A program made the position numbers and the translations under genes. The notes under the pieces are model-generated. The model saw only the letters and a program-made list of their open reading frames with translations, had not been told where the DNA came from and ran no database searches. A DNA stretch of 64,000 nt from Betaproteobacteria bacterium (GTDB lineage: Bacteria > Bacillota > SHA-98 > UBA4971): the NCBI GenBank assembly GCA_050260395.1, contig JBLNCC010000083.1, positions 17,592 to 81,591 of the forward strand, written 5' to 3'. Below are positions 3,732 to 61,877 of this stretch, in pieces; within the stretch, counting starts at the first letter, position 1; every line of letters begins with the position of its first letter.

Positions 3732-3806
3732 TGGAGCCGACGGGCGGATTCGAACCCCCAACCTGCTGATTACAAATCAGCTGCTCTACCGTTGAGCTAC
3801 GTCGGC
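3732..3806 (-). tRNA. tRNA-Thr (anticodon UGU)
   Basis: 75 nt. Acceptor GCCGACG/CGTCGGC, D arm GCTC-AACGGTA-GAGC, anticodon arm GCTGA-TTTGTAA-TCAGC (TGT), T loop TTCGAAT (one G-G mismatch in the T stem), CCA encoded. Confidence 0.88.
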
Positions 3807-39050: not shown

Positions 39051-39569
39051 GAACGCACGTCCCCAGTCTCTGCCCAAGCAGCCGAGCTGCACTCTCGTCG
39101 CACACGACGGCCACTGGGCCAATCTCGCGGGACAATTATACCCTCCAGGAACCATCCTCGCAAGAAGCTCGGGTCAATACGTCTGAATCGTGTCTATTCG
39201 CTATATGAGTGCGAATATGGGGCATTCACGCTTGCCAGGAATTCTCCGGAAGGAATTCGAGATGTATCATCGAATACTGTCGGGAGGTGAGGCAGCTGAC
39301 GCTATGCCGCACCGCATCGCGTGTTGATTGTGCGTTGCGAGAAAAGTCGCGGGGCGCGGAGCTTGGTGGGTGGTCAACCGGTTGTTTGTGGGTCGTTGCC
39401 CCAAGCGTCTCGGCCTCTAGACTGTTACTGGACGCCGGAAAGGAGTGATAGCCTACTGGTTGCGAGATAGCAGTGCGCTTCTACGTGCAGCTTCCACAAG
39501 ACCGCATTGCACGAGGCAGCTAATGAGGCCTTCGAGTCAAGCGGACGAGAAACCAAGGAGGTATATTGA

Positions 39570-41246
39570 ATGAGAAGAGTGCTTGTTGTGCTCATGGCCG
39601 CGCTTGTTCTTGCAACCATGAGTGTCGGGCTTGTCAGCGCAGCAAAGCCCCTGCCGAAACTGGTGCTGCTCTCGGGTGACTCCCAGATCGCCAGGCTTTA
39701 CGCCCAGGGCGTGCAGGAAATGATTCGCAAGAACCTTGGTCTCTCCATCGAGATCGAGGCGGTCGACTTCAAGACAAGGCTTCAGAAGATGAGGAACAAG
39801 GACTTCCAGATCGTCTTCGCCGGCTGGGGCGCCGACTACGACGATCCCATGACGTTCCTGGACATGTGGGTTACCGACGGGCCGTTCAATGACGTCATGT
39901 GGAGCAACCCCAGCTACGATAAGCTTATCGATGTGGCGAAGACCTCTCCCGACGAAGCGGTTCGCATGAAAGCCATGTCCCAGGCGGAGAAGATCCTCAT
40001 CGGCGAGATGCCCATAGCGCCTCTGTACTGGCCGGCCTGGAACTTCGTCGAGCATCCGTATGTCAAGAACGTTGTCCGCAAGACCGTCGGCTCCGACTTC
40101 GAGTGGAAGTGGGCCTACACAGAAGGGCGCCCGGGCGGCGACAAGGACCAGTTCCTCCGCCTGAACTTCGGCGAGGAGCCGCCGGATCTCGACCCGGCCA
40201 CGTCCACCGACCAGGTGTCTTTCTGGGTCATCAACGCGACCTATGAGGGTCTCGCGAGGAAGAACCCTGAGATGAAGATCCTCCCTGGCTCCGGCCTCGC
40301 CGAGAGCTGGACGGTCTCGAAGGACCGTAAGGTGTACACCTTCAAGCTTCGCGACGCCAAGTGGAGCGATGGGGTCCCAGTCACCGCGTATGACTTCGAG
40401 TATGGCTGGAAGAGGGTCATTGACCCGCGCACCGCGTCGCAGTACGCGTACATGATGTATGTGATCAAGAATGCTGAGAAAGTCAACGGCATGGAGGTTC
40501 CTGACGACAAGGATCCCAAGAAAGCCGAGAAGAACAAGGCCATCGACGACGCCCTCGCGACAGTGGGAGTGAAGGCGCTCGACGCTAAGACCCTACGCGT
40601 GGAGCTAGAGGCGCCCACTCCGTTCTTCCTCGACCTCATCACCTTCATTACCTACATGCCCAGCCCGAAGCATATGGTGGAGAAGCTCGGTGACGAGTAC
40701 GCCTCCGAGGTCGACAAGATGGTGGCGTGCGGGCCGTTCAAGGTCTCCAAGTGGCAGCACGAGTACAAGATCATCCTCGAGAAGAACCCCAACTACTGGG
40801 ATGCCAAGTCAGTCAAGCTGCAGCGGATCGAGGCCGACATGATCAAGGACATCGCCACCCCGCTGAACATGTTCGACGCGGGAGAGCTTGACTTCGTCGG
40901 TGTCCCTGGAACCTACATCGAGCAGTATAGGAACAAGGGCATGAAGACCATCGCCGAGGCGACCTCATGGTACCTCGAGTTCAACTGCAAACACGAGGTC
41001 TTCAAGAACGCGAAGGTCCGCAAGGCATTCTCCCTCGCCATCGACAGACAGGCCTATGTTGACTACGTGCTGAAGAACGGCTCGTTGCCTGCGACGTCCC
41101 TCGTTCCGCCGACCATTCACGGCAAAGACGGGGTATCGTTCCACGATGTGTACGTTGGCAACCTGTTGCCCACGAAGGCCGATGTCAAGCTGGCTAAGCA
41201 GCTCCTGGCCGAAGGTCTTGCTGAGCTCGGTTACGCCATGCCCTAG
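39570..41246 (+). CDS. ABC transporter substrate-binding protein, family 5 (Opp/Dpp/Nik type), circularly permuted
   Basis: AAGGAGG lies 8 nt before ATG 39570. Signal peptide has no lipobox Cys. Residues ~30-185 match the C-terminal ~155 aa of the canonical paralog at 54160. Residues ~195-558 match that paralog's N-terminal ~370 aa. Confidence 0.9.
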   Translation: MRRVLVVLMAALVLATMSVGLVSAAKPLPKLVLLSGDSQIARLYAQGVQEMIRKNLGLSIEIEAVDFKTRLQKMRNKDFQIVFAGWGADYDDPMTFLDMWVTDGPFNDVMWSNPSYDKLIDVAKTSPDEAVRMKAMSQAEKILIGEMPIAPLYWPAWNFVEHPYVKNVVRKTVGSDFEWKWAYTEGRPGGDKDQFLRLNFGEEPPDLDPATSTDQVSFWVINATYEGLARKNPEMKILPGSGLAESWTVSKDRKVYTFKLRDAKWSDGVPVTAYDFEYGWKRVIDPRTASQYAYMMYVIKNAEKVNGMEVPDDKDPKKAEKNKAIDDALATVGVKALDAKTLRVELEAPTPFFLDLITFITYMPSPKHMVEKLGDEYASEVDKMVACGPFKVSKWQHEYKIILEKNPNYWDAKSVKLQRIEADMIKDIATPLNMFDAGELDFVGVPGTYIEQYRNKGMKTIAEATSWYLEFNCKHEVFKNAKVRKAFSLAIDRQAYVDYVLKNGSLPATSLVPPTIHGKDGVSFHDVYVGNLLPTKADVKLAKQLLAEGLAELGYAMP

Positions 41247-41267: not shown

Positions 41268-41385
41268 AAGCCGGGTTTACCGGCTTGGAATCTCTGAGGA
41301 AACTGTGTCCACGGGTATTCCCCGCATAGGAGTATCGAAAGGAAGGCAGCGGGGCCCTGCGCCAGGAGAGCAGGGCCTTGCTGCC
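41268..41385 (+). other. Two stem-loops between the SBP gene and the first permease gene
   Basis: First: AAGCCGG-GTTTA-CCGGCTT (41268-41286). Second: GGCAGCGGGGCCCTGC-N9-GCAGGGCCTTGCTGCC (41345-41385, 16 bp including two G-U pairs). Neither has a U-tract. Confidence 0.7.
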
Positions 41386-41456: not shown

Positions 41457-42383
41457 TTGGGACGCTACATAGTCAGGCGGTTCGGGCTGATGCTTGCCGC
41501 GCTGTGGGTAATCGTCACGGCCACCTTTTTTCTCATGCACGCCATCCCGGGCGATCCCTTTCTTGGAGAGAAGGTAACCGAGGCGATCCGCCAGAACATG
41601 TTGCGCAAGTACGGCCTCGACAAGCCCCTCTGGGAGCAATACGTGATTTATCTGGGAAACCTCTTGCGCGGGGATTTCGGCACCTCCTTGAAGATGCTTC
41701 ACCGCTCGGTGAACGACATGATCCGTGACGGGTTCCCCGTCTCGGCATCTCTAGGCCTTGAGGCGCTGGCATACGCGGTGACGCTCGGCCTCTTACTCGG
41801 CACCGTTGCCGGGTTTCGGCATAACACGTGGCTGGACTACCTTGCGATGTTCGTGGCACTCATAGGCATATCGGTGCCTGGGTTCATCATGGGCGGCCTT
41901 ATGCAGTACGTTATCGGCCTCAAGCTCAGATTGCTTCCGATAGCCCGATGGGAGGGTTTCAAGTATACGATCATGCCCGCCGCTGCCCTGGGGCTTGGCA
42001 CACTCGCGGTAATGGCGAGGATGATGCGCACGAGCGTGCTCGAGGTCACAAGCCAAGACTATATCAAGACCGCGAAAGCTAAAGGCCTCTCGCAGAGGGA
42101 GATCGTCCTCCGCCACGTGCTGCGGAACGCCATCCTCCCCATCGTGACCATCCTCGGGCCGCTCACAGCAGGCATCGTAACAGGCAGCTTCGTCATCGAG
42201 CTGATCTTTGGGATACCGGGGCTCGGCAAGTATTATGTGCAGAGCATCTTCAACCGGGACTACACCCTCATCCTAGGAACGACGATTTTCTACGCCGTTC
42301 TCCTCGTGTTCCTGAACTTCCTGGTTGACGTCGCGTACGGTATCATAGACCCGAGGATCCGGCTCATGAGAAGCAGGGAGTGA
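41457..42383 (+). CDS. ABC peptide/nickel transporter permease (OppB/DppB type)
   Basis: ORF trimmed to TTG 41457 (AAGGAGTG 6 nt upstream). N-terminus RYIVRRFGLMLAALWVIVTATFFLMHAIPGDP. EAA-loop region: DYIKTAKAKGLSQREIVLRHVLRNA. Confidence 0.9.
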   Translation: MGRYIVRRFGLMLAALWVIVTATFFLMHAIPGDPFLGEKVTEAIRQNMLRKYGLDKPLWEQYVIYLGNLLRGDFGTSLKMLHRSVNDMIRDGFPVSASLGLEALAYAVTLGLLLGTVAGFRHNTWLDYLAMFVALIGISVPGFIMGGLMQYVIGLKLRLLPIARWEGFKYTIMPAAALGLGTLAVMARMMRTSVLEVTSQDYIKTAKAKGLSQREIVLRHVLRNAILPIVTILGPLTAGIVTGSFVIELIFGIPGLGKYYVQSIFNRDYTLILGTTIFYAVLLVFLNFLVDVAYGIIDPRIRLMRSRE

Positions 42384-43315
42384 TGAGATTGGCATCTACG
42401 CAAGAGATAGCGCAGGACATGTTCGAACCCCTCCAAATCGGCACGGGGGAAGGGGAAGCCATCACGCGCCCCCCTATAAGCTACTGGCGTGAGGTGGTGA
42501 GGCGCTTCAGGCGCAACCGCCTTGCCGTGGTGGGCCTCGTCATCCTGATAGCCCTTGTGGCGTTCGCGTTCGTAGGGCCGTTTGTTACGTCCTGGGATCC
42601 CAGGGAACAGAGCTTGTTCGACACGAACAAGCCTCCCTCCGCGGAGCACTGGTTCGGCACGGACAACCTCGGACGCGACATATTCGCAAGGCTGTGCTAC
42701 GGCATCAAGGTCTCGCTCTTCGTAGGGATCATGGCCGCCCTCATCGATCTTGTGGTGGGTGTGATCTACGGTGGGATCTCAGGATACTTCGGTGGAGTAG
42801 TAGACGACGTGATGATGAGGATTGTGGACATCCTGTACGGCATCCCTTATATCATCGTCGCCATCCTCCTCCTCGTAGTCATCGGTCCCGGTCTTTGGTC
42901 GGTGATCCTAGCCATGACCATCACCGGGTGGGTCGGTATGGCTAGGCTCGTGCGTGGACAAGTGCTCCAGCTTAAGGAGCAGGAGTTCGTGCTGGCCGCG
43001 CGAGCGCTCGGAGCAAGCCACCTCGGGATAATCCTTCGGCACCTCATCCCCAACGCCATGGGAGTCATCATCGTTCAGATGACCTTCACGATCCCGAGCG
43101 CTATATTTGGCGAAGCGTTCTTGAGCTTCATTGGGCTTGGAGTGCCGCTGCCCCTCGCCAGCCTCGGCACAATGGCCAACGACGGGTATCAATATCTTAG
43201 GATATACCCCTATCAGCTGATCATCCCGGCAATCGCCATCATCATGACCATGCTCGGGTTCAACTTCGTGGGCGACGGCCTGCGGGATGCGCTCGACCCG
43301 AAACTGCGGAGGTGA
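42383..43315 (+). CDS. ABC peptide/nickel transporter permease (OppC/DppC type)
   Basis: HWFGTDNLGRDIF and EFVLAARALGASHLGIILRHLIPN are typical of OppC. Start is ATG 42383 (or GTG 42380), overlapping the upstream stop. Confidence 0.9.
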   Translation: MRLASTQEIAQDMFEPLQIGTGEGEAITRPPISYWREVVRRFRRNRLAVVGLVILIALVAFAFVGPFVTSWDPREQSLFDTNKPPSAEHWFGTDNLGRDIFARLCYGIKVSLFVGIMAALIDLVVGVIYGGISGYFGGVVDDVMMRIVDILYGIPYIIVAILLLVVIGPGLWSVILAMTITGWVGMARLVRGQVLQLKEQEFVLAARALGASHLGIILRHLIPNAMGVIIVQMTFTIPSAIFGEAFLSFIGLGVPLPLASLGTMANDGYQYLRIYPYQLIIPAIAIIMTMLGFNFVGDGLRDALDPKLRR

Positions 43316-43320
43316 GAAGG

Positions 43321-44372
43321 ATGGCTGAGGAAAGGTTGCTCGAAGTCAGGAACCTCGAGGTCTCCTTCTACACCTACGCTGGCAAAGTGCACGCGGTTCG
43401 CGGCGTGTCGTTCCACGTTGACAAGGGGGAGACCTTGGCGATAGTCGGCGAGTCCGGCTGCGGAAAGACCGTCTCGGTGCAGTCGGTCATCAAGCTCATT
43501 CCCATGCCCCCGGGGAAGATCGAAGGGGGCACGGTGCTCTTCGACGGCAAAGATCTCACCGCCATGAGTGACCGGGATCTCCAGAGCGTGAGGGGCGCTG
43601 AGATCGGCGTCATATTCCAGGACCCCATGACTTCCCTGAACCCTACTATGACGGTGGGCAGGCAGATCACCGAAGGCCTCATCAAGCACCAGAAGCTCTC
43701 GGCGCAGGAGGCGAAGCGGCGGGCCATCGAGATGCTGTCGCTGGTCGAGATACCGAACCCAAACGAGAGGTTCCGTCAGTATCCTCACCAGTTCAGCGGC
43801 GGCATGAGACAGCGCGTGATGATCGCGATCGCGCTCTCGTGCAACCCGAAACTCCTCATCGCGGACGAGCCTACCACGGGCCTAGACGTAACCATCCAGG
43901 CCCAGATACTCGACCTCATGAAGAGCCTGCAGACGAAGCTCGACACGTCCATAATCCTGATAACCCATGACCTCGGCGTTGTCTCTAAGCTGGCAGACAG
44001 GATAGTGGTCATGTACGCCGGAAAGGTCGCTGAGGCCGGCACCTCCGAGGACATTTTCTATAACGCTCAGCATCCGTACACCCAGGCGCTTCTGAAATCT
44101 GTGCCCAGGCTCCACGAAGAGACCAAGAGGGAGCTGCTCGCCATACCCGGCACGCCTCCGGATCTTTTCGTCCCCCCGAAGGGATGCGCCTTCGCACCGC
44201 GTTGCAGCTATGCGATGAGAGTGTGCCTGGATCACCAGCCCGGGGACTTCACAGCGGGCGAGAACCACACTGTGGCCTGCTGGCTTATGGACCCAAGAGC
44301 CGCACGTGTCAGGGAAAGACACGCCGCCGGCGGGGCGGAGGACTCCGGTGCCAGAGGAGGCGCGACAAGGTG

Positions 44373-44373
<1 letters not shown>
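43321..44373 (+). CDS. ABC transporter ATP-binding protein (OppD/DppD type)
   Basis: Walker A GESGCGKT, signature FSGGMRQR, Walker B LLIADEPTTGLD, and a C-terminal oligopeptide-type extension. ATG 43321 follows GGAGGTG. Confidence 0.92.
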
Positions 44374-45338
<965 letters not shown>

Positions 45339-54159: not shown

Positions 54160-55842
54160 ATGTTCCGTAGAGGCCGCGTGACAACGACGTTGTTCCTTAC
54201 GGCTGCCCTGGTGCTAGCGTGCACGCTCCTGGCGAGCGGCCAGGAACAGCAGCCAAAGTACGGCGGCATCTGGAAGGACGCCCTCGGCGCAGATCCCCCC
54301 GACCTTGACCCCGTTATGGCAACGGATACCACCTCAGCCGAGGTTGGTTATCAGATCTTCGAAACCCTGGTCGCCATCGATCCTAACGGCGAGATCGTGC
54401 CTCTCCTCGCGGAGTCCTGGAAAGCCTCTCCTGACGGCAAGACCTTTACGTTCAAACTGCGTAAGGGGGTGTATTTCCACAAGACCACCGAAGGCGGTAA
54501 GCCCACCGCGAACGGAGGCCGCGAGGTCACCGCAGACGACTGGGTATGGACCTTCAATTACATCTGCGATCCTAAGACCAATTCCCCGCGGGCTTACTTC
54601 ATCGACATGGTAAAGGGTTACAAGGAGTACCGGGAGGGGAAGGCCCAGTCGATCTCGGGTATCAAGGCCCTCGACAAGTATACGCTGCAGATCGAAACCA
54701 CTTATCCATTCGCCCCGTTCATCACGGTGCTGAGCTACAACACGTTCGTGGTCCTGCCCAAGGAGGACGTGTTGAAGTGGGGCAAGGACTGGAACTTCCA
54801 CGTGGTGGGAACCGGGCCTTTCAAGTTCGAGTCATGGAAGCACGATGACAAGCTGGTGTTGTCGCGCAACGAGAATTACTGGATGAAGGACAAGTGGGGC
54901 AACAGGCTTCCCTATCTTGACGGCATCGAGTTCAGGATCATCACCGACCTCACCATTGAGTGGACCGAGTATAAGCTGGGCAATCTGTACGCGGCCCAGG
55001 TAGACGACCCGTACTATCCCGAGGCCTCCAAAGGCTTGAAGGTCGTGAACAGCGTGAAGACCGCTGTAAACGAGCTTGGCACGTACCTTGAGAGGCCGCA
55101 GCTGGGCACCTACTATTACGGCATGAACCAGACCCTCCCGCCGTTCAAGGACAACAAGTATCTGAGACAGGCTTTCAACTATGCCATAAACAGGCAGGCG
55201 CTCATTGACTTCGTGCTCAACGGCCGCGCCATGCCCGCCAAGGGTGTGCTTCCGCCCGGGATGTTCGCTTACAACGAAAACCTCAAAGGCTACACCTACG
55301 ATCCGAAGATGGCCAAGGACCTCCTCGTGAAAGCCGGGTATCCCAAAGGTGTCCAGGTGACGCTCCAGTACAACACGAACCAGGGCCACAAGAGGATAGC
55401 AGAAGCACTTCAGGCTCAATTCGCCCAAGTCGGCATCAAGGTCGACCTCAAGAACGTGGACTGGGGTGCCCACCTTGACACATGCGGCACCCAGGGCACC
55501 GTGCCTTTCTTCCGCATGGGCTGGGTAGTCGACTATCCCGACCCCGACAACTTCCTGTACGTTCTGCTGAACTCCGACAACTTCGGAGACCCGGGCAACT
55601 ACACGAGGTATCATAATCCGCTCTTCGATGACCTCACGAGGCAGGCCAGGCTCGCCACAGACCAGGAGATCAGGAGGAAACTGTATCAGAAAGCCGAGCA
55701 GATCGTGGTCGAAGATGCGCCTTGGGTATTCATATACCACTACACCAGCCACAACATGATAAAGCCTTTCGTGCGAGGATACAAGCTCCCGTCGTTCGGG
55801 CAGTACTGCAACAAGTTCACCGAAGTCTGGCTGGACCTGTAA
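54160..55842 (+). CDS. ABC transporter substrate-binding lipoprotein, family 5 (canonical topology)
   Basis: AAGGAGG lies 8 nt before the ATG. Lipobox: LVLAC. Canonical order runs from PPDLDP...ETL at the N-terminus to MGWVVDYPDPDNFL and EDAPWVFIYH at the C-terminus. Confidence 0.92.
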   Translation: MFRRGRVTTTLFLTAALVLACTLLASGQEQQPKYGGIWKDALGADPPDLDPVMATDTTSAEVGYQIFETLVAIDPNGEIVPLLAESWKASPDGKTFTFKLRKGVYFHKTTEGGKPTANGGREVTADDWVWTFNYICDPKTNSPRAYFIDMVKGYKEYREGKAQSISGIKALDKYTLQIETTYPFAPFITVLSYNTFVVLPKEDVLKWGKDWNFHVVGTGPFKFESWKHDDKLVLSRNENYWMKDKWGNRLPYLDGIEFRIITDLTIEWTEYKLGNLYAAQVDDPYYPEASKGLKVVNSVKTAVNELGTYLERPQLGTYYYGMNQTLPPFKDNKYLRQAFNYAINRQALIDFVLNGRAMPAKGVLPPGMFAYNENLKGYTYDPKMAKDLLVKAGYPKGVQVTLQYNTNQGHKRIAEALQAQFAQVGIKVDLKNVDWGAHLDTCGTQGTVPFFRMGWVVDYPDPDNFLYVLLNSDNFGDPGNYTRYHNPLFDDLTRQARLATDQEIRRKLYQKAEQIVVEDAPWVFIYHYTSHNMIKPFVRGYKLPSFGQYCNKFTEVWLDL

Positions 55843-55939
55843 TGCGTTGCTCGCGGTCTCCGGTCCGTAACGAATGGAGCAGCGCGGGCCGGAGAACTCG
55901 CTTTGACTTTCGACTGGATAAGGGAGCCGCAGACCGCCG

Positions 55940-55975
55940 CCCCTGGCGGGGAGGGGCTCCCCTCCCCGTCAGGGG
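55940..55975 (+). other. 17-bp G/C-rich hairpin between the SBP and permease genes
   Basis: CCCCTGGCGGGGAGGGG-CT-CCCCTCCCCGTCAGGGG, with one G-U pair and no U-tract. Confidence 0.7.
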
Positions 55976-56055
55976 CGTTGCGGGAGACGAAGCCAAAGTA
56001 GTAGCGCGGCGCAGCGGAAGTCGACCGCGGCTTGCAAGGGAGGTTGGTCCGCGCA

Positions 56056-56976
56056 GTGGGAAAGTACGTGATACGGAGGCTCATCGCGGCGATCCCGGTG
56101 CTCATGGGCGTCATTCTCGTGGTATTCATCCTGAGCACGATAGTGCCGGGCGACCCCGCAAGGATACTTTCGGGGCAAAGAGGCGACCCGGAGACAATCG
56201 AGAGGATAAGGCGGGAGATGGGCCTCGACAAACCCTGGTACATCCAGATGATCAAGTTCTATAAAGACGCCATCACGCTTGACCTCGGACGCTCGTACCG
56301 CAACAACATGAGGGTAACGCAGGCGATAGCCGAGAGGATACCGGCGTCCGCCAAGCTTGCAGGGGCATCCATGGCGATCGCGATTCCGCTCGGAATAGTT
56401 CTGGGCATCGTATCCGCTGTCAAGCAGTACTCCATCTGGGACTACGCCAGCATGGTTCTCGCCCTTCTCGGGGTGTCGATGCCCGTGTTCTTCGTCGGCC
56501 TTCTCGCAATCGTGGTATTCTGCGTGATACTGGGATGGCTTCCCGGCACGGGCTACGGCGGACTGCGCTATCTCATCCTCCCAGCCATGGCGCTCGGGCT
56601 GCGCCCCGCCGCGCTCATCGCTAGGATCACGCGCTCGAGCATGCTAGAGGTCATCCGCCAGGACTACGTCAGAACGGCACGCTCTAAAGGGCTCCCCGAG
56701 AGAGCGGTTGTTTGGAAACACGCCCTCCGCAACGCGATGATCCCAGTAGTCACGGTCATAGGCGTGGACACCGCGAACCTCCTGAGCGGCGCGGTCTTGA
56801 CCGAGACCATATTCTGCTGGCCGGGGATCGGGCGAATGGCCGTGGAGGCCGTGGTTAACCGCGACTTTCCCATCCTCCGTGGGGAGGTGCTTTTTATGGC
56901 TGTTGTTTTCGTCGCGGTGAACATCGTTGTCGATCTTTCGTACGCGCTCTTTGACCCGAGAATACGGTACGAGTAG
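56056..56976 (+). CDS. ABC peptide/nickel transporter permease (OppB/DppB type)
   Basis: N-terminus GKYVIRRLIAAIPVLMGVILVVFILSTIVPGDP. EAA region: DYVRTARSKGLPERAVVWKHALRNA. GTG 56056 preferred. TTG 56032 is the longest ORF start. Confidence 0.88.
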   Translation: MGKYVIRRLIAAIPVLMGVILVVFILSTIVPGDPARILSGQRGDPETIERIRREMGLDKPWYIQMIKFYKDAITLDLGRSYRNNMRVTQAIAERIPASAKLAGASMAIAIPLGIVLGIVSAVKQYSIWDYASMVLALLGVSMPVFFVGLLAIVVFCVILGWLPGTGYGGLRYLILPAMALGLRPAALIARITRSSMLEVIRQDYVRTARSKGLPERAVVWKHALRNAMIPVVTVIGVDTANLLSGAVLTETIFCWPGIGRMAVEAVVNRDFPILRGEVLFMAVVFVAVNIVVDLSYALFDPRIRYE

Positions 56977-56990
56977 GGGTGTTCGAGAAA

Positions 56991-57953
56991 ATGCGGAAAA
57001 CGGCGCCCGCTTCCGCTCCCGCAAGGTCAACGCCTCCTCCTGCCGCGCCACGCGCGAGGCGGAGGCCCAATGAACCGGCCCGCGAGGAAGCCGGCAGGAG
57101 CCTGTGGTACTATGCCTGGCTGCGGCTGCGAAGAAACAAGTCCGCTATGTTCGGGCTGTCGCTCGTGCTTCTCGTGGTGTTTTGCGCCATCTTCGCGCCT
57201 TGGATAGCGCCTTACGACCCTATCGAACAGCTCATGTGGACGGAGGGGCCCCCAGCGCAGCTCTCCCCTCCGAGCTTGAAACACTGGTTCGGGACGGACC
57301 TGTACGGTCGGGACGTGTTCTCGCGGGTCGTATACGGCACACGCATATCCCTCCGACTCGCAGTGGCCGCGACCATCATATCCGTGGTCATCGGAACGAC
57401 CCTCGGGGCGCTCGCGGGCTATTACGGCGGGTTCGTGGATGACGTCGTGTCGTGGCTCATAAATGTCATCTTCGCCTTCCCGTTCCTGCTTTTCGTCATA
57501 ACAGTGGTCGCGTACCTGCCGCCCAGCGACACTCTGGTCTATACTGTGATAGGTGCGATTTCGTGGATACAGATAGGGAGGATCGTTAGAGGCCAGGTAA
57601 TGGCGATAAAGGAGACAGAGTTCGTGCAGGCCGCGATAGCTTCGGGAGCAAGCGACGCAAGGGTGATCTTCAGACACATACTCCCCAACGTGGTCGCTCC
57701 TGTGATAGTCTCAGCGACCCTGGGCATGGGCGGCATAGTGATGCTTGAGGCGGGGTTGACGTTCCTGGGATTCGGCACGCAACCGCCCACCCCGAGCTGG
57801 GGATACGAGATATCCCGCGGCCAAGAATACCTGCTCGCAGGCAAGTGGTGGTGGTCGGTGTTCCCAGGCATCGCCATATGCCTGACCGTGCTGGGATTCA
57901 ACCTCTTCGGCGACGGACTCCGCGACGCGCTGGACCCGAGACTCAAGCAGTGA
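56991..57953 (+). CDS. ABC peptide/nickel transporter permease (OppC/DppC type)
   Basis: HWFGTDLYGRDVF and EFVQAAIASGASDARVIFRHILPN present. ATG 56991 (AGGGGTG 9 nt upstream) preferred over GTG 56979. Confidence 0.88.
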   Translation: MRKTAPASAPARSTPPPAAPRARRRPNEPAREEAGRSLWYYAWLRLRRNKSAMFGLSLVLLVVFCAIFAPWIAPYDPIEQLMWTEGPPAQLSPPSLKHWFGTDLYGRDVFSRVVYGTRISLRLAVAATIISVVIGTTLGALAGYYGGFVDDVVSWLINVIFAFPFLLFVITVVAYLPPSDTLVYTVIGAISWIQIGRIVRGQVMAIKETEFVQAAIASGASDARVIFRHILPNVVAPVIVSATLGMGGIVMLEAGLTFLGFGTQPPTPSWGYEISRGQEYLLAGKWWWSVFPGIAICLTVLGFNLFGDGLRDALDPRLKQ

Positions 57954-57959
57954 GACTGC

Positions 57960-58586
57960 CTATTTCGCCCGAACGATATCCTTCACCTTCATGAGCCTGG
58001 TGAGGTTCCCGCGCTCCATCTCATCGAGCTTCATCGTGATGTAGCGCGCCGTCTCGCGGAGGTTCGGTATGAGGACGTACTCCAGCGCATTGACGCGACG
58101 CCTGGTTTTCTCGATCTCGTCGGCCAAAAGCTCTATGGACCTCTCGACCTCGGCGAGCTCGGCCAATTTGGGAAGCAACCCGGCAAGACCCGTCACAGCA
58201 TCGTCCAACGATGCGCTCGTGCCTGAGAACCCGTAAGGATGCGCGTTTCGCGCGTCCTCGCCCCGCCACGTGAACTCAGGCACCTTAACGTTCATGATGG
58301 TCGTGGCGGAAACATCGACGCCGCACGATATCTTCGGCACCATGAAGGCCTCCTCGAGCGCTTCCTGAGACATAGCGGCCCTTGCCTCAAGGAACGCGGG
58401 AAGGACCGAGCCAAGGCCGGCCTCAACGTGGCCGCGCAGCGCCTGCTCCTTCTTTATGAGATCGAGGAACTTCTTCATGAGCTCGTCGCGCTTGTCCTTC
58501 AGCAGCTTGTGCCCGCGCTCGGCCATGGCGAGGCGCTTCTTGAGCCTCAAAAGCTGCATCCGGGTGGGGCTCACCCTGACCTCCAT
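57960..58586 (-). CDS. atpD: V-type ATPase subunit D
   Basis: SPTRMQLLRLKKRLAMAERGHKLLKDKRDEL is the conserved subunit-D N-terminus. Start is ATG 58586, or GTG four codons later after GGAGG. Confidence 0.88.
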   Translation of the reverse strand: MEVRVSPTRMQLLRLKKRLAMAERGHKLLKDKRDELMKKFLDLIKKEQALRGHVEAGLGSVLPAFLEARAAMSQEALEEAFMVPKISCGVDVSATTIMNVKVPEFTWRGEDARNAHPYGFSGTSASLDDAVTGLAGLLPKLAELAEVERSIELLADEIEKTRRRVNALEYVLIPNLRETARYITMKLDEMERGNLTRLMKVKDIVRAK

Positions 58587-58729
58587 GACGTCGCCGCGTC
58601 GGCACGCGCGCCCGGCCTCCATCTGCCCGCGCGCGGTGTCCCGCGGCTCCCTCCTTCTCAGATCTTCACATCGCAAGCCCGGCCGCCCGGCTGGGCAAGC
58701 CAGCTGGGCGGGTCAGCCGGACCGGGGTT

Positions 58730-60112
58730 CTACGCGGTCCGAACTTTGGGCATGTATTTCTCGATGTACTCCTCGCGGACCCTCTTGAGTTCCCTCGTGG
58801 GAAGCATGGCCAGGAGCTCCCAGCCTATGCCGAGGGTCTGCTCTATCGAGCGGTTCTCCTCGGGTCCCTGTTTCACGTAACGTGTCTCGAATTCGTCGGC
58901 GAACTTCGAGAACTGCTTATCCACTTCGGTCAGCGCGGCCTCTCCGAGGATCACCGCGAGCTCCTTGGCTTCTTTCCCACGGGCGTACGCCGCATAGAGC
59001 TGGTTCATCGTGTCGGCGTGGTCCTCGCGCGTCTTGCCCTTCCCGATGCCCTTGTCCTTCAGTCGCGACAGGGAAGGCAGCACGTCGATAGGCGGGTATA
59101 TGCCTTTGCGGTGCAGCTCGCGCGAGAGGAATATCTGCCCCTCGGTGATATAACCAGTAAGGTCCACGATGGGATGGGTCTTGTCGTCCTCGGGCATGGT
59201 GAGGATGGGGATCTGCGTGATGGATCCCTTCCGCCCTTTTATCCTTCCTGCCCTCTCATAGATGGTGGCGAGGTCCGTGTAGAGGTAGCCCGGATACCCG
59301 CGCCGCCCGGGAACCTCCTTGCGCGCAGCCGACACTTCGCGCAGAGCCTCGCAGTAGTTGGTCATGTCAGTGAGGATGACCAGCACGTGCATGTCTCTCT
59401 CGTACGCCAAGTATTCCGCTGCCGTGAGGGCCATCCTCGGAGTCGATATGCGCTCGATGGCGGGGTCGTTGGCGAGGTTGAGGAAGAGGACCGCCCGCTC
59501 AATGGCGCCGGTGCGCCTGAAGTCTCTGATGAAGTAGTCCGCCTCCTCGAACGTGATGCCCATGGCCCCGAAGACCACAGAGAATTTCTCGTCGGTTCCG
59601 AGCACCCGCGCCTGCCTCGCTATTTGCGCCGCCAGGGTCGCGTGCGGAAGACCGGAAGCCGAGAAGATGGGCAGCTTTTGCCCGCGTACCAAGGTATTCA
59701 TGCCGTCGATGGCGGAAACGCCCGTCTGAATGAACTCCGACGGGTAGTCCCGGGCGTACGGGTTTATGGGGCTGCCGTTTATGTCCAGCTTTTTCTCGGG
59801 GATGACGGGCGGGCCACCGTCGCGCGGGCGCCCAAAACCGTCGAAAACGCGCCCGAGCATGTCGGGGGCCACCGCAAGCTCAATACCTCTCCCGAGAAAC
59901 CTGACCCTGGCCCGAGCAAGGTTGAGCCCGGCCGACCCCTCGAAAAGCTGCACCAGCGCCCTTGAGCCGGACGCCTCGAGCACCCTGCCCCTCCTGGTCT
60001 CGCCCGGAGCGATCTCTATTTCCACAAGCTCTCCGTATTTCACGTCCCGGACCTGCTCAACCATCATGAGTGGCCCGGCGACTTCGGAGACAGTCAGGTA
60101 CTCCTTAAGCAA
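58730..60112 (-). CDS. atpB: V-type ATPase subunit B
   Basis: Motifs: [49 protein letters not shown] 60112 has GGAGGTG 6 nt upstream. The longest ORF starts at GTG 60121. Confidence 0.93.
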
Positions 60113-61877
60113 CCTCTTCACCTCCAGCTTGGGTCAAGCCGGCGAACGCCTTCGCTATTTCCTCCCCGATCTTGTCCAGCCTCGCCACGTCGCTCTCCGG
60201 CACGTACTTCATCCTCGCGATCGCGTCCCTTACCGAAAGCTCGAGAACGACGTCCAGGTTGGCACCCCGCTCCACGGCGGCAAGCGCCGCGTGATGGAAG
60301 TCGAGGATGGCCTTGAGCATGAGGCGCTGTTTCTTGAGGGAGGTGTACGTGTCCACCTCATGGTACGCGTTTTGGTGCAGGAAGTCCTCGCGAAGGCTTT
60401 TCGCCGTCTCAAGGGTCAGCCTGTCTCGTACGGAGAGCGCGTCCACCCCCACCAGCCGGACTATCTCCTCGAGCTCCGCCTCTTCTTGCAGGATCTTCAT
60501 GGCCTCGGCGCGCAGCACCCCGAAATCTGGCGCCACGGTCTCAGTTATGTGCTCCTCGAGTCTCTCGAGATACAGCGAATAGCTGATTAGCCAGTTGATG
60601 GCCGGGAAATGTCGACGGGCCGCCAGAGAATCGTCCAGGCCCCAGAACACTTTCACTATCCTCAGGGTGGCCTGGGTCACCGGCTCTGAAAGGTCTCCGC
60701 CTGGAGGCGATACCGCGCCCACAACAGTGAGCGTGCCTTCCCGATCGCCGCTGCCGAGGCACCTCACGCGGCCCGCCCTCTCGTAAAACTCCGCGGCCCT
60801 CGAGCTCAGGTAAGCTGGATAGCCTTCCTCTCCCGGCATTTCCTCGAGCCTGCCGGATATCTCGCGCAAAGCCTCGGCCCAACGCGATGTGGAGTCGGCC
60901 ATCAGGGCCACGTTATAGCCCATGTCGCGGAAATACTCGGCAATTGTGATGCCGGTGTACACCGAAGCCTCTCTAGCGGCCACCGGCATGTCGGAGGTGT
61001 TCGCCACAAGCACCGTGCGCTTCATCAGCGGCTCGCCGGTGCGCGGGTCGGTGAGCTCGGGGAAGTCCATGAGCACTTCGGTCATCTCGTTCCCGCGCTC
61101 GCCGCATCCGATGTATACGATGATGTCGGCGTCCGCCCACCTCGCGAGTTGGTGCTGGACCACCGTCTTGCCGCTTCCGAAGGGACCGGGCACGCACGCG
61201 GTGCCACCCTTCGCCACCGGGAAGAACGTATCGATGATCCGCTGCCCGGTCACAAGCGGCTGGTACGGTGCAAGCTTTTCCCTATATGGGCGACCGCGCC
61301 GCACAGGCCATCTCGTAAGCATCGTGATGTCCTTGATGCCTGAGGCCGTCTTTATCCGTGCCACTACATCGAGCACGGTGAACTCGCCCGCGCGGATGTC
61401 CTCCACGGTCCCCTCGATGCCGTGGGGCACCATAATCCTGTGTTCCACCACGGGAGTCTCCTGGACAACGCCGAGCACATCCCCCGCGCTGACGCGGTCG
61501 CCGGACTTGACCCGTGGTTCGAAGGCCCACTTGCGTTCGCGGTCCAGGCCGGGGAGCTCGACGCCGCGCTCGATCCGGTCGCCGACCGCGGCCCGGATCT
61601 TGTCGAGAGGCCTCTGGATCCCATCGTAGATGGACTCGATGAGCCCCGGTCCGAGTTCCACGGAGAGCGCCTCGCCAGTCGAATACACCGGCTCCCCCGG
61701 TCCAAGCCCAGCGGTCTCTTCGTAGACCTGGATTGACGCCTTGTCGCCGCGCATCTCGATGATCTCGCCGATGAGCTTCTTTTCGCTCACCCGCACCACA
61801 TCGTACATCCTGGCATCGCTCATGCCCTCAGCTACAACGAGCGGCCCTGAGACTTTGATGATCCTTCCCACGTCCAT
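60105..61877 (-). CDS. atpA: V-type ATPase catalytic subunit A
   Basis: Walker [17 protein letters not shown] and [10 protein letters not shown] present, plus the non-homologous insert region typical of A subunits. ATG 61877. Confidence 0.95.

Follow-up and report, generated by a model that had tools for sequence, protein, structure and literature searches.

A probable natural circular permutant of OppA-type binding proteins at the head of an oppBCDF operon

The DNA analysed here, 64,000 nucleotides (nt) of contig JBLNCC010000083.1 from assembly GCA_050260395.1 and called the window below, contains an open reading frame (ORF) at 39570 that an earlier note, made from the letters alone, described as a family-5 substrate-binding protein (SBP) with its N- and C-terminal blocks exchanged. 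This locus raises the question whether a peptide-binding protein whose chain order is reversed can be a genuine, working component of an ATP-binding cassette (ABC) importer, or whether it is an artefact or the debris of rearranged oppA genes. From sequence comparison and structure prediction we estimate a probability of about 0.85 that the gene encodes a functional, natural, circularly permuted OppA-type binding protein that serves the OppBCDF importer encoded downstream. The coordinates of the gene, its parts and its neighbours are collected in Table 1.

Block order and chain topology

Comparison by BLASTP of the permuted protein with the canonical-order paralog present in the same window gave exactly two off-diagonal blocks in swapped order. 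Residues 200-548 of the permuted protein matched residues 42-391 of the paralog (30% identity, E 1e-39), and residues 21-170 matched residues 389-539 (26% identity, E 2e-11). The Pfam family PF00496 matched two stretches of the permuted protein (294 bits, compared to a cut-off of 32.4) and a single stretch of the paralog, residues 78-476. Among the PDB sequences searched with phmmer, the best match to the window protein was B. subtilis OppA (8ARE): query residues 185-556 aligned with residues 11-363 of the 8ARE chain (independent E-value 9e-65) and query residues 23-175 with residues 363-516 (1e-25), the break point in the canonical chain being one residue, 363. The same two-way split was seen in every strong PDB match, and none of the PDB sequences searched matched in the permuted order.

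The claim of swapped blocks within a single ORF is thus borne out by all three comparisons, including the pairwise alignment that had been proposed as a check, and every motif quoted in the earlier note is present. The risk it had named, that the N-terminal ~160 residues are unrelated to binding proteins, did not materialise, as these residues are homologous to the canonical C-terminal third. An unrelated N-terminal domain, one of the candidate explanations, is ruled out by this homology of block A to the C-terminal thirds of canonical proteins. The block swap is real and far beyond chance.

By its sequence the window protein is a member of family 5, cluster C of the binding proteins (OppA/DppA/NikA, PF00496), from which it departs in chain topology only; the NCBIfam OppA models also match it, with scores under their equivalog cut-offs. 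The canonical chain topology was not found, the blocks being swapped and lobe 2 divided between both ends of the chain. What was found is the arrangement of a circular permutant: two homologous segments in reversed order, the old termini joined, and 529 of the ~533 mature residues aligning after rotation with P0027, the closest canonical relative.

Block A, the displaced C-terminal third, is 45-71% identical to the C-terminal block of canonical relatives. The junction that follows is made up of the old C-terminal tail ..EGRP, two glycines and DKDQ, a remnant of the old N-terminal linker; its sequence, GRPGGDKDQ, had been read correctly before, and its position, given as about 40122-40154, is corrected here to 40125-40151. 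The chain terminates with ..LAELGYAMP, and the position of the stop codon bears out the claim that the protein ends where a canonical chain would continue.

The un-permuted window sequence was aligned to E. coli OppA (mature numbering). The cut corresponds to about residues 353-358, a loop that connects a helix to a beta-strand in lobe 2, and the far end of the beta-strand that follows this loop reaches the cleft. The earlier note, which had guessed at new termini close to the hinge and the ligand cleft, was therefore probably wrong on this point. The old termini are joined between OppA residue 517 (R187 of the window protein) and about residue 10 (D191). The domain borders that Tame et al. 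are said to have given in 1994 for S. typhimurium OppA are 1-44, 169-270 and 487-517 for domain I, 45-168 for domain II and 271-486 for domain III. On these borders the order along the window protein would be IIIb (26-156), Ic (157-187), linker, Ia (191-225), II (226-366), Ib (367-464) and IIIa (465-558). In YejA and other oligopeptide-binding proteins, lobe 1 is built from the N-terminal part and a C-terminal segment, and lobe 2 from one contiguous middle segment (PMC10924461), which confirms the general domain scheme for cluster C proteins. Judged by these alignments, the fold, both inter-lobe crossings and the ligand-anchoring aspartate appear to be retained, and only the position of the chain ends, now in a surface loop of lobe 2, would be altered.

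This aspartate is Asp419 in OppA, where it anchors the amino terminus of the ligand (PMC3173086). D89 of the window protein aligns with D419 within the motif GW(x)AD, and W86 aligns with W416; both W86 and D89 are invariant among 34 permuted sequences. These 34 full-length relatives, which are 45-98% identical, share 73 invariant positions, the ligand-anchoring aspartate included.

An AlphaFold2 model of the window protein, built on the 34 permuted sequences, reached a predicted local distance difference test score (pLDDT) of 92.4 and a predicted template modelling score (pTM) of 0.87, the signal peptide region appearing as a helix of low pLDDT. When this model was compared to the PDB by sequential Foldseek, OppA and DppE structures were recovered with a probability of 1.00, over ~385 columns confined to block B; for 8ARE the template modelling scores on query (TMq) and target (TMt) were 0.55 and 0.60. 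A control model of P0027, also with a pLDDT of 92.4, gave 531-545 aligned columns with these structures (TMq of at most 0.83, TMt 0.95). A sequential structural alignment thus does not cover the full length of the permuted protein, a point on which the earlier note had made its claim depend. After rotation at residue 190, the window sequence aligned with P0027 over 529 residues (56.1% identity), and the predicted secondary structure (DSSP) agreed at 94.5% of positions (96.3% in block A, 93.7% in block B). The models thus predict the bilobed fold with the extra domain II seen in solved OppA structures.

A conserved family and its origin

The permuted order was found in 35 of the 120 best database homologs and the canonical order in the other 85, both blocks of the permuted proteins being 45-60% identical to canonical relatives. 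The permuted relatives share the block order, the cut and the junction, and homologs with the same junction, which had been suggested as a test, were therefore obtained: all of them carry WKWAYTEGRPGGD(xx)..LNLNLGEEPPDL, the junction running WKWAYTEGRPGGD..LNLNLGEEPP. The signal peptide stands directly ahead of block A, and the C-terminus lies a few residues past ..LKELGY. Permuted genes were present in nine loci of GTDB species representatives, which belong to Bacillota metagenome-assembled genomes (MAGs), Candidatus Fermentithermobacillaceae and Limnochordaceae. The database look-up gave no entry for the exact window protein sequence, and several permuted proteins are labelled 'hypothetical protein' in NCBI.

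A copy 98% identical to the window protein is present in three other (Logan) assemblies, where, as in the window, it is preceded by radical-SAM and LPG-synthase-like genes; a 94%-identical copy is present in the MAG 'Bacillota bacterium Yes71-24', a GTDB species representative. For another relative, P0028, the index lists 165 assembly blocks (ENA, NCBI, Logan). The ratio of nonsynonymous to synonymous substitution rates (dN/dS) was 0.028 and 0.052 in comparison to relatives of 93.5% and 88% nucleotide identity, alike in both blocks; values of 0.03-0.05 in both blocks indicate selection on the whole frame. The contiguous ORF first described is upheld by these independent assemblies and by the low dN/dS, and the permuted form is a conserved natural family that is under selection and is no assembly error.

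These data bear on two other explanations of the ORF. Related genomes commonly carry tandem oppA arrays, in which a chimeric assembly or a gene-calling artefact could fuse the 3' portion of one copy to the 5' portion of its neighbour, but this ORF recurs, complete with signal peptide, junction and stop, in many independent assemblies from different sources, synteny is kept on both sides, and no second SBP fragment lies beside the gene in the window. An assembly chimera has a negligible probability and is ruled out by the independent assemblies and the conserved synteny. A decaying remnant, that is a non-functional fusion left by deletions in a tandem oppA array, would call for just such deletions as the origin proposed below involves. 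It is, however, at odds with dN/dS values of 0.03-0.05 in both blocks, with the invariant positions and the ligand-anchoring aspartate of the 34 full-length relatives, with a model that is a confident single fold, and with the fact that the operon, complete and translationally coupled, contains no other binding-protein gene. We consider such a remnant extremely improbable, and the dN/dS values and the conservation rule it out.

The junction itself points to the way in which a natural permutant could have arisen. The nearest canonical relatives end with ..WKWAYT(E/Q)GRP(KK or NS) and their core starts with ..(Q)YLNLNLGEEPP; the mature core of P0048 begins with ..DKDQFLNVNLGDEPP, compared to GRPGG-DKDQFLRLNFGEEPP in the window protein. 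The junction is thus a canonical C-terminal tail joined to the end of a canonical N-terminal linker. In close canonical relatives, oppA is often one of two to four paralogs arranged head to tail, and in other lineages two to four family-5 units are fused into a single polypeptide; such fusions provide natural examples of the fused state that a duplication model requires. The most likely origin, as judged from these sequences, is duplication, fusion and truncation, once at the base of the family. Two tandem oppA paralogs would have been fused in frame. Subsequent losses would have removed two stretches: from the upstream copy the initial two thirds that come after its signal peptide, and from the downstream copy the final third.

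The tandem-fused family-5 proteins include P0121 (2704 aa), P0122 (2843 aa), P0124, P0131, P0135, P0136, P0143, P0147, P0178 and P0233. Some of the fused proteins carry a large unrelated N-terminal region, that of P0122 starting like a regulator of the SARP/ATPase/TPR type. A divergent family-5 fragment of 144 aa was also observed just upstream of the P0027 gene (locus L090, 844-1278, minus strand) and is possibly debris of an oppA rearrangement.

The profile of the permuted family was also run against 1.84 billion representatives, and the matches were mapped with block hidden Markov models. Two further proteins, P0226 and P0157, show the window-type order. For either block, the closest relatives are canonical (P0148 and P0144), which makes these independent permutation events. 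The cut of P0226 is the same as that of the window family. In P0157 and in P0271, a member of its cluster found on 16 contigs of up to 259 kb, the cut lies ~20 residues earlier, so that the mature chain of P0157 starts with the helix found at the end of the window protein. A second type, with the order B2-A-B1 and the cut at the first hinge, ahead of the VRKAxxLAIDR helix, is represented by P0187, P0189/P0263, P0212, P0234 and P0260; by sequence, lobe 2 would with this cut form one continuous N-terminal segment, joined to the other lobe by a single covalent link. Their closest relatives in both blocks are canonical as well, which again points to independent events. Most of the second-type permutants are singletons on short contigs and are therefore provisional. 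P0260 is encoded in an oppBCDF operon, behind oppBCDF, and adjoins a canonical tandem paralog to which it is 51-52% identical in both blocks (locus L089, 5001-6656 and 6796-8445).

Operon context, anchor and docking

The earlier claim that the gene heads a complete ABC operon is confirmed by the NCBIfam matches of the four genes downstream, oppB, oppC, oppD and oppF, which abut or overlap each other (Table 1). The OppB match (Opp3B, 1.4e-113) starts at residue 25 of the mechanically called ORF. The same four genes come after the permuted gene in all 11 permuted loci examined, as they do in the window.

Table 1. Positions in the window of the permuted oppA gene, its parts and the surrounding features
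Feature	Position	Strand	Basis or remark
Shine-Dalgarno sequence AAGGAGG	39555..39561	+	Strong; 8 nt 5' of ATG 39570; read from sequence
Permuted oppA ORF	39570..41246	+	Uninterrupted, 558 aa
Signal peptide, residues 1-25, MRRVLVVLMAALVLATMSVGLVSAA	39570..39644	+	Ala-x-Ala signal-peptidase I type site, no Cys
Block A, residues 26-185, displaced canonical C-terminal third	39645..40124	+	BLASTP, phmmer to 8ARE, E. coli OppA mapping
GWGAD motif, G85-D89	39822..39836	+	Aligns with E. coli OppA W416-C417-A418-D419
Junction GRPGGDKDQ, residues 186-194	40125..40151	+	Conserved in all permuted relatives
Block B, residues 195-558, canonical N-terminal two thirds	40152..41243	+	BLASTP, 8ARE 11-363, Foldseek, E. 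coli OppA mapping
Stop codon	41244..41246	+	Where a canonical chain runs on into the strand found at the start of the mature window protein
Hairpin AAGCCGG-GTTTA-CCGGCTT, oppA-oppB spacer	41268..41286	+	No T-run after it, so no consensus terminator
Second, longer GC-rich hairpin, oppA-oppB spacer	41345..41385	+	Read from sequence
oppB, permease	41457..42383	+	Probable start TTG 41457 behind AAAGGAG; mechanical ORF start 41388
oppC, permease	42380..43315	+	NCBIfam Opp3C 2.8e-119; overlaps oppB stop
oppD, ATPase	43312..44373	+	NCBIfam OppD models, 1.8e-112 to 4.8e-123
oppF, ATPase	44373..45338	+	NCBIfam OppF 7.4e-117; start ATG 44373
Canonical-order family-5 paralog, distant, outside the permuted operon	54160..55842	+	PF00496 in one stretch; reference protein of the earlier note

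The spacer from the permuted oppA to the probable oppB start is 210 nt long and contains two hairpins without T-runs. By causing partial termination or stabilising the mRNA, these hairpins could adjust how much binding protein is made relative to permease. The scan for consensus promoters and terminators around the gene gave nothing on the plus strand, and at Rfam gathering thresholds no family was found in the 414-nt leader, the only matches in the window being four tRNA genes elsewhere. The leader, which separates the permuted oppA from the divergent radical-SAM gene, contains an imperfect palindrome, GAATTCTCCGGAAGGAATTC (39239-39258), which is a possible operator.

The function of the protein, judged from its sequence and gene neighbourhood, is most probably ordinary peptide capture for OppBCDF. 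Following export via Sec, it would close around a peptide whose amino terminus is free, in the manner of a Venus flytrap, and would dock on OppBC. A recruitment for a role other than transport, for example as the ligand sensor of a signalling protein, with an incidental opp neighbourhood, was also considered. Family-5 binding proteins do feed signalling systems, and PrgZ and AapF are among the structural matches, but a gene that heads oppBCDF in 11 of 11 permuted loci, in an operon with no alternative binding-protein gene, makes such a role improbable.

The anchoring of the permuted proteins differs from that of their canonical relatives. The absence of a lipobox, which had been noticed in the window protein as compared to the paralog with its lipobox-like LVLAC, is confirmed for this protein, whose signal peptide contains no cysteine, but it is not a general trait of the family. 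In most relatives the position aligned to the cleavage site of the window protein is a lipobox (..AGC or ..SSC), and a lipobox is present in 27 permuted relatives. Its absence is limited to a Limnochordaceae-like sub-clade (the window protein, P0001, P0002, P0005, P0007-9 and P0011), which has a signal-peptidase I type site instead. In the permuted lipoproteins the cysteine is separated from the first profile position of block A by a median of 5 residues (range 5-13, n=27), compared to 20 residues between lipobox cysteine and core in canonical relatives (range 8-59, n=161). In the lipoprotein members the anchor has therefore moved and become shorter: where canonical proteins have a tether of ~20 residues on lobe 1, these have one of ~5 residues on lobe 2. 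Limnochordia are diderm bacteria (PMC11456536), and the window protein fits a soluble protein that would be free in the periplasm of a Limnochordia-like, diderm member of the Bacillota.

Whether the permutation changes the way in which the binding protein is held by its translocator can be considered in the light of the M. tuberculosis DppABCD structures obtained by cryo-electron microscopy. There, the lipoprotein DppA stands on the translocator with its hinge and N-lobe, while its N-terminal loop follows transmembrane helix 2 of DppB to the anchor and its C-lobe rotates by ~25 degrees on ligand binding; the authors propose tethering and recognition of the N-terminal region as prerequisites of assembly (PMC10954201). 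By analogy, a 5-residue tether on lobe 2 could conceivably impose a different docking pose, although we hold this to be rather unlikely.

The permutation might then be adaptive, having placed the N-terminus and, in most members, a very short tether on lobe 2 and deleted the long N-terminal loop, with the result that the protein is held by, or assembled with, OppBC in a way not equivalent to that of canonical OppA, for instance in a different resting pose or as a permanently docked complex. The short tether on the other lobe speaks for this, as do the roles that the DppABCD structures give to the N-terminal loop and tether in assembly and the mobility of the C-lobe (PMC10954201). The authors of the TpMglB-2 study raised the same idea for a permutant of cluster B (PMC4990184), and permutation has recurred independently in this protein family. 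Recurrence may, however, merely reflect the abundance of tandem oppA arrays; moreover, the window sub-clade keeps the permuted order without any lipid anchor, so that the topology persists untethered, and OppB and OppC of the operon are ordinary by NCBIfam. We therefore regard an adaptive permutation as doubtful, and a recurrent, selected re-wiring of the tethering and assembly of OppA-type proteins with their translocators as a tentative proposal at best. If it were true, the N-terminus would be on the mobile lobe 2, the N-terminal loop that the permease recognises in the M. tuberculosis Dpp complex would be gone, and the docking or resting geometry would be unlike that of any described cluster C importer.

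Several points weigh against our preferred reading of a functional natural permutant that arose once by duplication, fusion and truncation and serves as an ordinary periplasmic OppA. The residues of enterobacterial OppA that bind the ligand carboxylate, R413 and H371, are replaced by F83 and A41 in the window protein. In a neighbour-joining tree of the un-permuted sequences, the permuted proteins cluster with canonical P0027 and then with P0048/P0055, but strict monophyly of the permuted proteins was found in 3 of 50 bootstraps, because P0027 falls among the basal permuted branches; the argument for a single origin therefore comes mainly from the shared junction and cut. As for the tandem-duplicated intermediates that the earlier note had proposed to search for, fused family-5 forms were found in distant lineages but none close to the permuted family, and a database search with the junction alone for such close intermediates returned short fragments only. 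Finally, the placement of the protein in a diderm periplasm is an extrapolation from related lineages.

Elsewhere in the window, a second family-5 system (54160-57953) consists of a binding protein and two permeases, with no ATPase genes, and may borrow OppD and OppF from the first operon or from elsewhere. It abuts genes on the minus strand for subunit D (57960-58676) and subunit B (58730-60121) of a V/A-type ATPase. The four tRNA genes (Rfam RF00005) are on the minus strand at 271-535 and 3735-3806, three of them clustered at the window start.

Comparison with known binding proteins

The best matches in sequence and fold are canonical OppA and DppE proteins (B. subtilis OppA 8ARE/8ARN and DppE 8AY0/8AZB, B. 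anthracis 6NPO and L. monocytogenes 5KZT). They have in common with the window protein PF00496, the three-domain architecture of cluster C, the GW..D motif and the gene order oppABCDF. They differ in that their N-terminal two thirds precede their C-terminal third, an order that is reversed in the window protein, with the cut at residue 363 of 8ARE. The nearest canonical relatives, P0027/P0123, P0048 and P0055, are from metagenomes. P0027 resembles the window protein in its ..EGRP tail, its ..(Q)YLNLNLGEEPP core start, its predicted secondary structure and the oppB and oppC genes downstream, whereas all four differ from it by their canonical order and by a long lipoprotein tether on lobe 1.

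The full-text literature that was searched, subscription-only papers being outside its scope, contained no natural permutant in cluster C, and the earlier statement that none is described in this cluster held within that scope. The only natural permuted ABC binding protein found there is from another cluster. TpMglB-2 (Tp0684) of Treponema pallidum is circularly permuted, has kept its ligand binding and was proposed to represent a 'cluster Bc'; it is mostly tethered and is encoded with its transporter, and homologs of the same topology occur in other bacteria (PMC4990184). TpMglB-2 is a sugar-binding, MglB-like protein of cluster B that belongs to an unrelated sequence family and has another cut, whereas the window protein is of cluster C, family 5; the matches of the latter were to PF00496 and OppA-type proteins only, and no MglB-type homology was seen, which makes it a parallel case and no member of 'cluster Bc'.

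Few binding proteins have been studied as well as those of the OppA type. Binding proteins are classified by chain topology and number of hinges, and a natural permuted family bears on such classes. It indicates that chain ends within lobe 2 are compatible with the cluster C fold, and annotation based on profiles shows such proteins as two partial matches. With the anchor on the other lobe and shortened, and with one sub-clade, the window protein included, having dropped the tether, the family also offers a natural experiment on tethering, and thereby on a question of recent cryo-electron microscopy work, the part that the lipid tether and N-terminal loop of a lipoprotein play in its assembly with the translocator. 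The recurrence of permutation beside tandem oppA arrays and fused proteins illustrates the route by duplication, fusion and truncation. Engineered permutants of periplasmic binding proteins, made as biosensors, are like the window protein in showing that the fold tolerates new termini, but they are man-made, mostly derived from maltose- or other sugar-binding proteins, and are not components of a natural transporter. For peptide biosensors based on permuted binding proteins, the cut site and the junction of the natural family provide ready-made design rules.

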